Shown: positions 44,175-63,891, counted from the first letter of the stretch. The stretch is 64,000 bases of DNA from a virus (IMGVR_UViG_3300044684_000224:14820-78819), one strand, 5' to 3'. Made by a program: numbers and translations. Notes: generated by a model from the sequence alone, not told the origin.

Positions 44175-47100
44175 CCGGCTCGATGGTCCTGCCGAACCCG
44201 GACTGCCCGAACAGCGCGGCGCATGAGTTGCGACCCAAGGGCTACCTGGCGCATTCGGCGTGGGCTGACGAGATGGCCGAGACCCACGAGCAGCAGCAGT
44301 GCCCGGAGTGCAGCCTGTGGGTCATCTGGGTGCCGAAACAACCCGACGCAGCGCCAACTGTCGGCGCTGCCCACGAACCCAAGGAGACGAACGAATGAAC
44401 GACCGACCGAGCCTCGACGACCAGATGGCGGACGCGGTCCGCAACCAACGCGAGCACGTCCGCGCGTCGATGGCCGTGGACCGGCGCGGCTGGACGCGGC
44501 AGCAGTGGATCGACGACGCACGCCGCCTGATGCACGACCTCGACGGCAGTGTCCTGGCACTGGTGAACGGTCACGTGATGGCGTTGCTCGACGAGGTCGG
44601 CGACCGCACGCCCCGTAGCGTCGCAACGCAGCCTGCGAAGCGGTACGCGCTGGTTCAGGACGACGACTGCCACTGGTACGTGGTCGAAGCCGACCGGGTC
44701 GACGAGTGGTACGAGCTGGACGACGACCAGATCAACGCCGGGCAGCCATGGATGCGGCAGGTCGGCGGAGCACCGAACCAGGTGACGTTCACCGACCCGC
44801 TGATCTTCGGGAAGCCCTTCGTGCAGGACGAGCCCGGGGAGACGGAATGAGCTACGACAACGGCCGAGGACTCGGCACATGGCATGGATCGGAAACGGCA
44901 CCCGATGTGCGCGTCGGTCAGATCTGGGCCGACAACGACTGGCGCAGCAAGGGCCGCACGCTGCGTGTCGACGAGGTCAAGCACAGCTCGCGGATGGGCA
45001 AGCAGGTCGCGGTGTGCACGATCCTCACCAACGCCGATCGGGTGCAGGCCGAGGTCGATCGAGGCAGTCCGTGGGTGAAGGATCGTCGAGGCAAGACCAC
45101 GGAGGTCGGCGTGGAGCGCATGAAGCCAACGTCCACCGGCTACCGCCTCGTTCAGGATGTGCACGAGGAGGCAAAGGCGTGAGCGCCGACGAGATCGAAC
45201 AGCGCCGAGTGAGACGTCCGGCCCGTGGTGTCTACGCGGCCGGTCTGCTGCTGAGTTTGCTCACCTGTCTGGGCATCATCGGCTGGCTCGTCGGGGTCGC
45301 TGTCCACGACAGTCACAACGACGCGACGTGGCTCATCTTCCCGGCGCTGTTCGCGGCGATCGGCTGTGTCCGGCGCCTGGGCTGGCTGGCCGGCATCCAC
45401 GAGGACGACTGATGACCGCTGAGATCGCCGTAGAGCCTCCGAAGCTCACCGCCGCGGACCTACGTCGGGCAGACCGCGAACGCGAAGCGGCAGCCAAGCG
45501 AGCCGTCGCTGTGGCTGCCCCGGAGCGTGGTGGTCTGCACCCGGACCCGCTGAGGACCACGTTCGCCCAGCCGCCGTTGGTCGACTGTCTCGACTGCGAC
45601 CGCCGCAAGATCGCCGCGTGGCTGTTGGGTGGACGGTTCGACTCGACCCGGTGCACACACGGAGGGACGACGACATGAGCACCCGGTGGCATCCGCTTGG
45701 CGCGAAGATGAGCTTCGAGCGCCCCGAGGTCGGCGCGCTGATCGCGTACGACCACGCCGCGTATCGGGTGATCGAGGTCAACGAGCCACCTGAGGATCTG
45801 TGGTCGGACGAAGAACGCATCGCGGTGGCGGCGGGCAGTCGTAGCCGCCCCTACGTGGCCGTGGTGCGCCCGGTGTCCATCGGGGGCGACGACCCGCGTG
45901 CGCGTGATCACGATCTCCACCTGGGCGCGCGGCGTGCCCTGACCCAGTGGTGGATCTACCCGACCGAGCACTACCCGGTGTGCGCGACCTGTCATGAGCC
46001 GTTGCCCTGTCGCGAGGTCAGCGCGACGGAGCAAGCCCGGCAGGCCATCGAGCACATGGGCCGGTTCGAGTCCCCGAACGTCTGCCCGGCATGCGAAGGG
46101 CTGATTACAATCGGACAGCGCCGGCAGACGTTCAACATCAACCTGGAGATCCCCGGCGGCCCGCCGGTGACCTTCCATCTTCGACAGAAGTGCTTCCCCT
46201 CGGCGTACCGATACGAGATGCGGCTACGGAAGGCATTCCCAGAGGCCGAGCCGCTGCTGTGCGGGGGCCTGTGGCGCGACACCGCGTGCGACCACGGGCC
46301 GGCCGGATGCACCAGTGACGACTGTCCAGGTTCGGGCGCGGTGCACGGGGAGCGCGGCTGCCACTACTGCCCGAAGCCCCAGCGTCGGCGGCGCGCGACG
46401 AGCGGCCAGTGTCGCCATTGCAGCCGTCCGGTGCGCCGGGACGACACCCGCAGTGGCCTGTGGGTCCATGTCGGCACTGATCTGCCGCGGTGCGCAGGCG
46501 CGGATGCGGTGGCCATGCCGAGAGGAATCCAGCCGTGACCGCCCCGCTGCCTCCGAATGTCCGTCCCGGCTACCGATGGGTGCGGCGTACCGAGGACAAG
46601 CCGCACCGGTGTCCTGAATGCCATGCCGTGGCGACATGGGACCGCAAGCACGCCGGTCCACGGACGCGCCTACGGTGCCCGCGCTCGTGCGGCGTCCAGT
46701 GGCGTTACGGGGCGCGCATTGAGCGTCGCGGGCGGTGGATGAAGGAGTTCTTCCGGACGTATGGAGGTTCCGATGCCTGACCTGTCACCGCTGCCGGGTG
46801 TCCGTCCCGGCCAGATCTGGGACGAGGTCCAGCCGAAACGCCGAGCCAAGGCGCACCGCTGGACGGTGTTCGCCGTGGATCACATGTTTGTCGTGCTGAG
46901 GAGGGGAACGGTGCCGGACGTGGTGGCCCGACAGACGTTCCGCGATGGCTTTGAGCAGCGCTACCGGCTGGTGTCCGAGCCCGCTCCGATGGATGTGGGT
47001 TACCTGAGCCTGCCGGCCGAGGTGCAGCAGGAGACCGAGAGGGGAGAGCAATGACCGACCACCTGAACGGCACGCAAACGGATCGCGGCTTTACGCGCTA

Positions 47101-61839: not shown

Positions 61840-62415
61840 TCACTGGCGTTGCTCCAGCGGGCCGGACGAGTCGACGGCGAGCAGTCCTTCGAGGCGAGCA
61901 ACCTTGCGGTTCAGTTCCTCCACCGAGACGTTGTGCTCGACAAGCTTCCGACCCTGCACCTTGAGTCGCCCCTCGGTGATTGCCTGCGCCTGTTCCAGTG
62001 AGGTGATCCGTTGGTCGTGCTGCCGAAGTTGCCGGGAGTGCGCGTCCAGCCTGATCGTCTGCTGCTCGTGCTGGGCGAGTTCCAGCACGCTCAGATCCTC
62101 GACGCGCGTGCCGCGCAGCGTCTCCAGCCCTCGCCGGACCTGCCGGCCGGCGCGCTTCCGTCGATTGCGCGCCTGGTCGGCATGCTCACGTGCGGCAGCT
62201 ATGCGGTAGCCGACGCCGCGCACGTTCACCGCAGTGCGACGGTCGCGATCCTGAAGTAGCCGGATGGCGTCATACAGGGCCGCTCGACTCGCCACCAGGT
62301 CAACGCCGCTGGCCTCGTCCAGTTCCGCGAGGGTGAACACCTGGTCGACTCCACCGGTACGCAGCACGTTGTAGATCAGTTCACGCTGCGACAGTTCCGC
62401 CTTGGTCTCGAACAT
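61840..62415 (-). CDS. Winged-helix plus coiled-coil protein, coupled to the RAMP gene
   Basis: 191 aa MFETKAELSQ..; FTLAEL..helix..VNVRGVGYRI wing; heptad C-terminus; TGATG overlap at 62413-62417. Confidence 0.75.
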   Translation of the reverse strand: MFETKAELSQRELIYNVLRTGGVDQVFTLAELDEASGVDLVASRAALYDAIRLLQDRDRRTAVNVRGVGYRIAAAREHADQARNRRKRAGRQVRRGLETLRGTRVEDLSVLELAQHEQQTIRLDAHSRQLRQHDQRITSLEQAQAITEGRLKVQGRKLVEHNVSVEELNRKVARLEGLLAVDSSGPLEQRQ

Positions 62416-63023
62416 CAGTCGACCACCTTGAAGGTCGAGACCTGGAAGCGCCCGTAGCGGAGACGGAAGTCGCCGAGTCCGGCGATGGCGCCAGCGCGGT
62501 CCACGATGGTCTGGAATTTGTCGATGTCCAGCACGGTGTCGTCCACCTGCCACAGGGAGGTCAGTGCCCATTTGTGGAGCTTCGGACGGCAGCGCATGAT
62601 CTTCACTCGCTGCTGCCCGGTCGGCCGGTAGTCGACATACGGCGAGCCTTCGAGCCCAGCACCCCAGAGTTTGTCGAGGGTACGCGGCCCCTCGTAGATC
62701 AGGGGGAGTTTGCCGTCTTCGGACGCGTCGGTCAGTCCGTCGCGGATGTAGCCGCCGTCCGATGTTTTCTTCGCCGCCGCGTGGATGGACGCCCACATCA
62801 TCTGCGCCGGCAGGTATGGGCCGTAGACCTGGTCCCAATACCAGGACATCTCCCATTCCAGCCACGCAATGCGGAGCAGAACCTCCTCGGTCTTGTCCTT
62901 CCCGCGCTTGCGGGCGAGAGAGGTCTTCTCTTTGTTGCTGGGGTCGAACGGGTTTACCAGGCGTTCGGCGTTGTGGATGAGCAGTGGACGGGTGCCACTG
63001 ATGCCGATCTCGATGGTTTTCAT
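62415..63023 (-). CDS. Stand-alone RAMP/Cas7-like RNA-binding protein (VIPR-like effector)
   Basis: N-terminal strand IEIGISGTRPLLIHN, GPYLPAQMMWASI, RCRPKL..W and C-terminal Gly-loop AGAIAGLGDFRLRYGRFQV, characteristic of RAMPs; AAGGGAG RBS; no other cas genes nearby. Confidence 0.72.
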   Translation of the reverse strand: MKTIEIGISGTRPLLIHNAERLVNPFDPSNKEKTSLARKRGKDKTEEVLLRIAWLEWEMSWYWDQVYGPYLPAQMMWASIHAAAKKTSDGGYIRDGLTDASEDGKLPLIYEGPRTLDKLWGAGLEGSPYVDYRPTGQQRVKIMRCRPKLHKWALTSLWQVDDTVLDIDKFQTIVDRAGAIAGLGDFRLRYGRFQVSTFKVVD

Positions 63024-63093
63024 GCAGGACTCCCTTGTGTTCGAGCGGTCCTATTGCCAAGTGAGGCGCGCTGCCTCGTGGCGTTTACCGCTC

Positions 63094-63370
63094 CTGTGCG
63101 CGCCAAGGACTCGAACCCTGGTGTCTGCCCGTCACGCTCCGTCCCTACCTCACCTCGCCTGGCCACACCGCACCTCGCCGGACCCAGCCCAACCCAGCCC
63201 CACTGTGTGCGCCGGGGCCTCGAACCCCGGTGACTGCCAGTCGCACTCCGTTGCCAAACCTTGCCCTGCCACACCCAACGCAGCCGTACCGAACCACGCC
63301 GCACCGGACCCCACTCAGCCTCACCTCATCGCACCCAGCCATGCCACACGGTGCCAAACACAGCCCTACC
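63094..63370 (-). ncRNA. GGY-NN pentamer guide-like RNA array: two units, each a pentamer tract plus a 48-nt structured tail
   Basis: Tract A 63251-63370: 24 pentamers, 19 exact GGY and all 24 with Y at position 3. Tail A 63203-63250. Tract B 63145-63199: 11 of 11 GGY. Tail B 63094-63141. Tails are 39/48 identical. Confidence 0.85.
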
Positions 63371-63377
63371 AAAGAGA

Positions 63378-63401
63378 GCGTCCAGGACCAGCGTCCAGGA
63401 C
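63378..63401. repeat. 11-bp direct repeat GCGTCCAGGAC x2 upstream of the pentamer array
   Basis: 63378-63388 and 63391-63401. Confidence 0.75.
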
Positions 63402-63540
63402 GTACACAGTGAACCACCTGTCCAACTATTCGTCCAGCGCAACGAGAATCACCAATTACGACCAACGCGTATCAACGGAATCGGGAACGTACCAACGCAT
63501 GCCGATTTGTACGCCGCAGTGCGGCCGATGCTCCACATGC

Positions 63541-63891
63541 TCAGTCCCACAGTGCCCAGAAGTGCTCGACGAACAGCTTCAGCGCCTCGTCTATCGCTGC
63601 TCGTTCCGCCTTCTCCCGTTCGATCGCCTGCGAGTAGGTCTCACCCTCGACGTGGCGGTTGAGGTCAACCTTGAGTGGGTCGACGATGCGGGTGAGGGTG
63701 TCCCGCCATTCCTCCTCGGTCATGCTTGGGTCGTAACCCATGCCGTGGTCTCGGAGGTGTTCCACCGTCCCAGCGATCACCGAGGCCAGGTAGCAGTGGA
63801 GTTCCCACACATCCCGCTCCGACCAGCCGCGCCGTGCACGCTGGATGCGCCACTTCATCGTCCGCAGCGGCTTCGTGAATCGGGGCATCAT
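63541..63891 (-). CDS. Conserved phage hypothetical protein
   Basis: RRGWSERDVWELHCYLA..W..L..I..EALKLFVEHFWALWD. Confidence 0.7.
   Translation of the reverse strand: MMPRFTKPLRTMKWRIQRARRGWSERDVWELHCYLASVIAGTVEHLRDHGMGYDPSMTEEEWRDTLTRIVDPLKVDLNRHVEGETYSQAIEREKAERAAIDEALKLFVEHFWALWD

Follow-up and report, generated by a model that had tools for sequence, protein, structure and literature searches.

tRNA-like modules at the ends of guide tracts in a phage VIPR locus

Layout and identity of the locus

The window analysed here is a 64,000-nt stretch of a 93,360-bp genome of a soil phage with 66% GC, the host of which is presumably an actinobacterium. Near the right-hand end of the window, the minus strand carries a short tandem repeat, two tracts of phased pentamers, each followed by a tRNA-like module, and two overlapping genes. 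Listed from 5′ to 3′ on that strand, and named with the terms of the VIPR systems introduced below, the features are as follows.

63377-63401, minus strand: tandem 13-nt direct repeat built on a near-palindromic GTCCTGGAC core (1.9 copies at 100% match in Tandem Repeats Finder)
63251-63370, minus strand: vrRNA-1 guide tract, 24 phased pentamers, 120 nt (GGY/NN pattern)
63247-63250, minus strand: junction CGGA from the last repeat of vrRNA-1 to tail A
63207-63246, minus strand: tail A, a type-1 tRNA-like module of 40 nt with the loop TTCGAGG (covariance model, structure scan)
Between tail A and the vrRNA-2 tract, minus strand: seven separating bases, ACAGTGG
63140-63199, minus strand: vrRNA-2 guide tract, 12 pentamers, 60 nt (11 GGY-NN and one GGA-CG)
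63098-63137, minus strand: tail B, a type-1 tRNA-like module of 40 nt with the loop TTCGAGT and two G-U pairs
63024-63096, minus strand: spacer of 73-74 nt from tail B to the vipr ATG, ending in AAGGGAG
62415-63023, minus strand: vipr, 202 aa, a minimal RAMP protein with the G-loop GLGDFR...YGRF (homology to SUSP1 Vipr)
61840-62415, minus strand: vap-like accessory gene, 191 aa, its start overlapping the vipr stop (TGATG)

The two tract-to-module junctions are built alike. The four bases CGGA that precede tail A also precede tail B, where they consist of GA and the two bases that end the tract before it, and in both tracts the module begins 2-4 nt 3′ of the last repeat. An unpaired A, reminiscent of the discriminator base of tRNA, lies 3′ of each module (63206 for tail A, 63097 for tail B) and is followed by CAG. 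The spacer downstream of tail B may be read as a 5′ UTR, with AAGGGAG as a ribosome-binding-like motif. At the other end of the array, the 13-nt tandem repeat lies directly 5′ of the first guide tract, at the end of an AT-richer stretch, and is a candidate operator or promoter-proximal element; it may be bound as an operator by the vap-like winged-helix protein, or contribute to the promoter of the array. A sigma-70 consensus promoter scan near the repeat and the array returned no promoter.

[quoted passage not shown] Their Vipr protein, a minimal RAMP of about 20 kDa, polymerises on a vrRNA of ~100 nt that consists of 9-16 GGY/NN pentamers followed by a conserved 3′ tail, and the complex reads double-stranded DNA via the NN dinucleotides with a 1-nt skip (10.64898/2026.04.26.720920, 10.64898/2026.04.26.720927). 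The 202-aa protein of the window matched PDB entry 36pp_D, ‘SUSP1 Vipr protein’, over its full length (phmmer E 3.8e-14, residues 1-196), and a profile of 13 Vipr homologues matched the same entry, the sole solved structure found, at E 4.3e-51. It contains the conserved GLGD[YF]R..[YF]GRF motif, matches the unnamed PHROG family phrog_4652 (E 2e-36) and has 6,638 representative relatives; Pfam gave no match for it, and a single-sequence AlphaFold model (pLDDT 30.6) was not used. The 191-aa protein is 25% identical to gp33 of Mycobacterium phage LittleE (E 1e-12), which follows the LittleE vipr gene. It also matches phrog_5926 (E 1.2e-5) and shows a weak similarity to SUSP1 vap1 (E 0.002) around a common GVGYR motif.

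Given the Vipr homology, the GGY/NN rule, the 12 units of the second tract and the vap-like gene, tracts and protein together represent an already described kind of system, and the locus is, judged by these sequence comparisons, a phage VIPR system. The preliminary description of this DNA, made from the sequence alone, had taken the pentamer tracts for guides, which agrees with their assignment as vrRNAs beside an adjoining Vipr RAMP gene. Among the closest known systems is the type II system of Escherichia phage SUSP1, which has a full-length homologous Vipr and, as in the window, a small accessory gene that overlaps or abuts vipr. In SUSP1, as here, GGY/NN pentamer guides lie in intergenic DNA flanking vipr, each with a conserved structured 3′ tail. 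The tails themselves differ: that of SUSP1 is an AT-rich hairpin with a pseudoknot and no T-loop signature, whereas that of the window is a tRNA mimic, and our covariance model of the latter (R1, see below) misses the SUSP1 tails. When 7.9 kb of the window were compared with cultured phages by blastn, no relative was found.

The 24 units of vrRNA-1 stand in one register; 19 of them open with GG, and the remaining five retain the second G. Its 5′ half (12 units) is the more degenerate, four of these units lacking the first G, and the tract as a whole exceeds the published range of 9-16 units. It may represent two fused guides that lack an intervening tail, or include a long leader; tracts of 18-24 units also occur in two other loci of our collection, L022 and L080. 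In vrRNA-2, 11 of 12 units follow GGY, and the unit count equals the 12 Vipr protomers seen on SUSP1 vrRNA by cryo-EM. Within the 93-kb genome, a period-5 GG signal of 12/12 was found at this locus only, the background maximum being 7. Target scoring with the 1-nt-skip rule over 1.86 Mb of sequence gave a best score of 18/24, equal to that of shuffled guides, and an exact search of IMG/VR for the full vrRNA-2 pattern returned no match. Several other readings of the tract (a site for a TRAP-like ring protein, two-tier G-quadruplex arrays, a reverse-transcriptase template, a glycine-rich coding repeat and a Rho utilisation site on the opposite strand) were dropped because the VIPR identification explains the tract and the G-U pairs of the tails fix the strand.

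Searches of the locus revealed neither a Cas6-like gene nor a ribozyme, hammerheads included, as expected from the preliminary description, in which Cas6 was thought to be replaced. Ribozyme families were found neither in the window at the gathering score nor in 62950-63600 at E values up to 10. PHROG matches on eight ORFs included no cas annotation, and Pfam searches of six neighbouring ORFs gave no match apart from one sub-threshold Fer4_5. The arrangement is also not that of a CRISPR array with Cas6: the separators are not identical repeats (nine differences in 40 nt), and the ‘spacers’ are pentamer tracts.

Structure of the tRNA-like module

The module consists of a 5-bp acceptor-like stem stacked directly on a 6-bp T stem that is closed by the 7-nt loop TTCGAGN, and an 11-nt linker, ACYGGCAGNCA, with an invariant GG, runs from the 5′ acceptor strand to the T stem (structure scan). 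This is the anatomy given in the preliminary description, a 5-bp stem on a 6-bp stem with a 7-nt TTCGA loop, and it is borne out by both the structure scan and covariation; the module length of 48 nt given there has to be corrected, since the paired core measures 40 nt.

Tails A and B show nine differences, eight of them at paired positions, and pairing is preserved at all eight. These eight comprise one T-A to C-G and one G-C to A-T double change, two changes that give G-U pairs, and the tertiary pair between linker and T loop, which is U-G in one tail and A-U in the other. The remaining difference affects a linker base that has no partner; the earlier statement that most of the nine differences preserve pairing is therefore accurate. 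The G-U pairs exist on the minus strand only, which implies that the RNA is read from that strand.

A covariance model from homologous loci had been proposed in the preliminary description as a check on the fold. We built such a model, R1, from 94 distinct modules that aligned without gaps. The seed pattern used to collect them fixed parts of the loop and linker and left the stems and the tertiary pair unconstrained. In the 64-kb window, R1 found tail A (66.9 bits, E 6e-14), tail B (58.9 bits, E 5.8e-12) and no other match, so that the two tRNA-like modules said to end the pentamer tracts are indeed present, on the minus strand and within the interval first assigned to them. Among the 94 modules, 98.9% of pair cells are paired, against 74% in shuffled alignments and 35-55% when the partner column was slid, and in 234 cells both partners have changed in a compensatory manner. 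Covariation is seen at each of the five acceptor pairs and at three of five scored T-stem pairs; the other two are invariant G-C, and the sixth T-stem pair is a near-invariant C-G. Unexpectedly, the variable linker base pairs with the last base of the T loop in 94/94 modules, with all four Watson-Crick combinations represented.

The positions that correspond to G53, T54, T55, C56, R57, A58 and C61 of the T arm are invariant or at least 90% conserved in the 94 modules, a conservation that is partly due to selection of the sequences, since the seed pattern fixed part of this signature. The linker GG is placed where the D loop of a tRNA would supply G18 and G19. The likeness to a tRNA minihelix and elbow thus comprises a G-TTCRANN-C T loop with G-C closure, the two G's, an unpaired purine and a coaxial stack of 11-13 bp (11 bp in the modules of the window), compared with 12 bp in tRNA. 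In contrast to tRNA, the module has no D stem, anticodon arm or encoded CCA, its acceptor-like stem measures 5-7 bp, and it has an extra pair that joins the linker to T-loop position 7. We conclude that the modules are true mimics of the top half of tRNA, the acceptor/T-arm domain.

Thermodynamic folding alone was not significant in this GC-rich sequence, with RNAfold z-scores of -1.87 and -0.12 for the isolated modules and similar outcomes for guide plus tail, and the support for the fold therefore comes from covariation, not from energy; the minimum free energy fold of tail A does recover both stems. General tRNA searches were silent on the modules because the D and anticodon arms are absent. 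ARAGORN called no tRNA at the modules, in the window or in the whole genome, and the Rfam tRNA model returned nothing there even at E 10, while finding a true tRNA elsewhere in the genome. A canonical cloverleaf could not be drawn, as only 11 nt separate the acceptor strand from the T stem. The best Rfam match of tail A was mascRNA-menRNA, at 16.0 bits against a gathering score of 42.5 (E 2.5). A further T-loop-like motif in the window, GGTTCGAGTCC at 46063, lies inside a coding sequence, forms no module and was rejected.

A 102-nt tRNA gene lies ~1.5 kb past the right end of the window, on the same strand as the VIPR locus (L213:1495-1596, minus strand; genome coordinates C1:80314-80415). It scores 46.7 bits with the Rfam tRNA model, above the gathering score, and is missed by ARAGORN. 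It holds ~40 nt in the anticodon region where the model expects 11, which may be an intron or an oversized arm.

Occurrence of the modules with and without Vipr

tRNA-like tails of two sequence types occur in about 20 VIPR loci, including that of the cultured Mycobacterium phage LittleE, in which vipr is gp34, the vap homologue is gp33 and the guides carry such tails. In every fetched locus that combines pentamer tracts with modules, a Vipr gene is present in the same orientation (L004, L018, L022, L025, L063, L071 and L072), and the same holds for three actinobacterial genomes, namely an Aquihabitans metagenome-assembled genome (MAG), a Micromonosporaceae isolate and Amycolatopsis antarctica. 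In these loci, guide and module units are arranged head to tail, up to seven or more in a row, the next guide starting 2-8 nt past the module. The last guide of LittleE (L106:3930-4010) is followed by a plain hairpin and then by a GC-rich hairpin, terminator-like by eye, without a tRNA-like module, which fits the idea that a module is needed only where another RNA follows.

The closest relative of the window's Vipr (57% identity) is encoded in locus L080, which has three guide units upstream and eight downstream of vipr-vap. Its tails are of type 2, with the linker (G)ATGGTCRYAG and the loop TTCGAYT on the same architecture as type 1, and the stems of its array vary from copy to copy and compensate. 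In the Vipr tree, the window, with type-1 tails only, is sister to L080, with type-2 tails only (support 98/95). Both types are mixed within single arrays in L071, L063 and L022. A scan for type 2 found more than 100 loci ranging from 28 to 73% GC, and among 83 distinct type-2 copies the four variable T-stem pairs are 96-99% paired and use all four pair types. A Vipr gene was found in 8 of 78 type-2 loci, including AT-rich phages with RGT-type pentamer guides. In four VIPR loci with a GC content of 37-40% (L122, L125, L126 and L140), RGT-NN pentamers replace GGY-NN and the tails are GC-rich and of type 2.

Modules that stand alone, apart from any Vipr, are more numerous than the VIPR-linked ones. 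In a blastn comparison of the region with cultured phages, the modules alone were matched, in 65 records (64 Streptomyces phages and one Gordonia phage), and the top-listed matches lie in unannotated intergenic DNA. A type-1 pattern scan of IMG/VR gave 76 loci, many of them with two to four copies on one strand. About 68 of these 76 loci and about 70 of the 78 type-2 loci contain neither Vipr nor pentamer tracts, which brings the Vipr-less phage loci to well over 100. Where flanks were examined, the solo modules lie in the short interval that separates a stop codon from the following, co-directional gene. The recurrence of the module in unrelated surroundings is also apparent in a wastewater run, in which many contigs match only the 42-nt module of phage Joe and have flanks that are all different. 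Rfam 15 has no family for the solo modules, and a full-text literature search returned no description of them.

Several further observations bear on this solo family. Vipr-less Streptomyces phages of the Arquatrovirinae carry two to five type-1 copies per genome (L001, Sujidade; L002/L074, Joe; L013, L014 and L026), as do about 60 other IMG/VR loci; the modules are co-oriented with the genes and sometimes have a hairpin 3′ of them (Sujidade, Joe and others). In L109, L110, L111, L115, L117, L118 and about 20 more loci with a GC content of 42-50%, a highly conserved element of ~90 nt recurs with hardly any change on many metagenomic contigs. It comprises roughly 45 conserved bases and then a type-2 module, and looks like a larger non-coding RNA that ends in a half-tRNA. 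Contigs of Bacteroidota and Gemmatimonadota MAGs (L085, L087, L091 and L095) bear type-1 modules with a near-identical core and AT-rich flanks. Such type-1 modules far from Actinomycetota suggest either spread by phages or strong constraint by a universal partner.

Proposed guide maturation and alternative roles of the module

We propose the following scheme for the locus. A single minus-strand transcript would comprise vrRNA-1, vrRNA-2 and then the vipr-vap mRNA. Each GGYNN guide in it would end in the 40-nt mimic of a tRNA top half, in which the acceptor-like stem is coaxial with the T arm and the linker supplies the two G's of D-loop type and the Watson-Crick pair to the last T-loop base. 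Host enzymes of tRNA maturation would recognise this shape and cleave the precursor where the modules begin or end, with RNase Z acting 3′ of the unpaired A and RNase P possibly at the 5′ edge of the stem, and would thereby free unit-length vrRNAs and the vipr mRNA without Cas6, a ribozyme or separate promoters. Should the 3′ cut alone take place, the product would be a ~107-nt guide with a tRNA-like cap, close to the published ~100 nt, and the same cut would define the 5′ end of the next guide; the retained module could then act as a compact 3′ cap, in the role of the SUSP1 pseudoknot. An RNase P cut 5′ of the module would yield a tail-less guide. A search of sequencing runs for the locus returned two DNA data sets from soil or rhizosphere, which may be its source, and no RNA run; for the phage Joe locus, such runs matched small shares only.

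With modest confidence, and from sequence comparison, we lean towards cleavage of the precursor at the edges of the modules by enzymes that act on tRNA in the host. One module separates the two guides and the other separates vrRNA-2 from the vipr mRNA, and the solo copies are intergenic. A minihelix made of acceptor stem and T arm suffices as a substrate for RNase P, for RNase Z and for the CCA-adding enzyme. The hosts vary widely in base composition, and all that stays conserved among them is the universal set of tRNA elbow and T-loop features, which favours a host factor that reads tRNA shape. Certain properties of the module count against such cutting. The acceptor-like stem has 5 bp, not 7, and no CCA is encoded; the stack of 11 bp may be cut inefficiently or out of register by enzymes that gauge a length of 12 bp. 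Position -1 is usually occupied by A, whereas bacterial RNase P favours U there. T-loops are, moreover, a general RNA building block outside tRNA as well.

Comparable arrangements are known from other systems. At mascRNA (MALAT1/MEN-beta) and at the t-elements of plant mitochondria, cleavage by RNase P and RNase Z sets the termini of the adjoining RNAs; there, as in the window, an acceptor/T-arm structure is embedded in a longer non-tRNA transcript. These are eukaryotic or organellar and have a fuller cloverleaf. The likeness is one of architecture and not of sequence homology, and for the window cleavage is a proposal. In synthetic polycistronic tRNA-gRNA (PTG) constructs, guides alternate with tRNA-shaped spacers from which RNase P and RNase Z of the host can set them free. 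In a different guide system, the window resembles a naturally occurring version of PTG; PTG is engineered and uses full tRNA genes, whereas the element of the window is a 40-nt half-tRNA that may stay on the guide.

The VIPR preprints describe pseudoknot tails in the SUSP1 clade, staggered and hammerhead-interspersed arrays, and single-guide systems (10.64898/2026.04.26.720920, 10.64898/2026.04.26.720927). In the hammerhead-interspersed or staggered arrays of types I and V, ribozymes lie between the guides, or cut sites are common to neighbouring vrRNAs (fig. S18-S19, 10.64898/2026.04.26.720920). Like the locus studied here, such arrays separate their guides by an element that needs no Cas6-type protein; the hammerhead separator, however, cleaves itself, whereas that of the window has no ribozyme signature and resembles a substrate of host tRNA enzymes.

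The strongest competitor of host-enzyme cutting, which we nevertheless regard as rather unlikely, holds that the module does no more than provide the vrRNA with a structured 3′ handle or cap, equivalent to the SUSP1 pseudoknot and read by Vipr or vap for filament nucleation and 3′ protection. General nucleases such as RNase E, J or III, or exonucleases that trim as far as the structured element, would produce the guide ends, and the tRNA likeness would reflect reuse of a stable T-loop fold. The published vrRNAs do carry an invariable structured 3′ tail that caps the filament, in which protomers resolve from 3′ to 5′, and their common tail is described as making the vrRNA competent for Vipr complex formation; because the SUSP1 tail is needed for this step, the module might chiefly be a Vipr handle. 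The pairing of linker and T loop, furthermore, makes the module formally a hairpin with a pseudoknot-like contact, and a guide that kept its tail would match the reported vrRNA length of roughly 100 nt. Opposed to this is the abundance of modules in phages that have neither Vipr nor a pentamer tract. A single Vipr would also need to tolerate both tail types, and stems that vary strongly, in one and the same array, and sister Vipr proteins use different tail types. For these reasons we favour a host factor over a Vipr-specific handle. The two accounts overlap, as a handle is compatible with a 3′ cut by RNase Z.

The prevalence of solo modules, together with the many wastewater contigs that share only the Joe module amid unlike flanks, would suit yet another account, in which the modules are independent tRNA-like RNAs, such as decoys for tRNA-targeting defences or toxins or substrates for CCA addition or aminoacylation, and adjoin guides only because both occupy non-coding stretches of early operons. 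We consider this improbable, since each guide in the VIPR loci is succeeded, after a short and constant interval, by a module that keeps the phase of the array, which is the arrangement expected of a vrRNA part or of punctuation. That the modules resemble tRNA by chance, derive from tRNA pseudogenes or are attP-type copies of host tRNA 3′ ends, and have no function as RNA, as the silence of ARAGORN and Rfam and the weak z-scores might suggest, is hardly credible in view of the massive covariation between the 3′ strand and a 5′ acceptor strand that any attP copy would lack, the orientation that always matches the flanking genes, the G-U pairs on one strand only and the hundreds of copies in unrelated phages.

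VIPR itself is known; the tRNA-like tail and the solo family are undescribed in the accessible literature. In the texts of the VIPR preprints, supplements apart, the word tRNA does not occur and neither RNase P nor RNase Z is linked to VIPR, and how guide arrays become single vrRNAs is stated for the ribozyme-bearing VIPR types only. RNase P, RNase Z and the CCA-adding enzyme all recognise the portion of tRNA that the tail imitates, and the tail thus offers a concrete hypothesis for maturation free of Cas6, and one that is testable in a cultured system, because LittleE has the same arrangement and M. smegmatis is genetically tractable. For engineering, a 40-nt separator processed by the host could multiplex VIPR guides.

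The solo copies constitute a widespread, strongly covarying phage RNA without an Rfam family, which may be a general device for mRNA processing or stabilisation. Somewhat more speculatively, the half-tRNA could belong to a very large uncatalogued family of phage ‘punctuation’ RNAs (28-73% GC) with which phages would recruit RNase P, RNase Z and perhaps the CCA-adding enzyme of the host for cleaving and capping polycistronic RNAs, and that several VIPR lineages would have co-opted for the maturation of guide arrays without a protein or ribozyme of their own.
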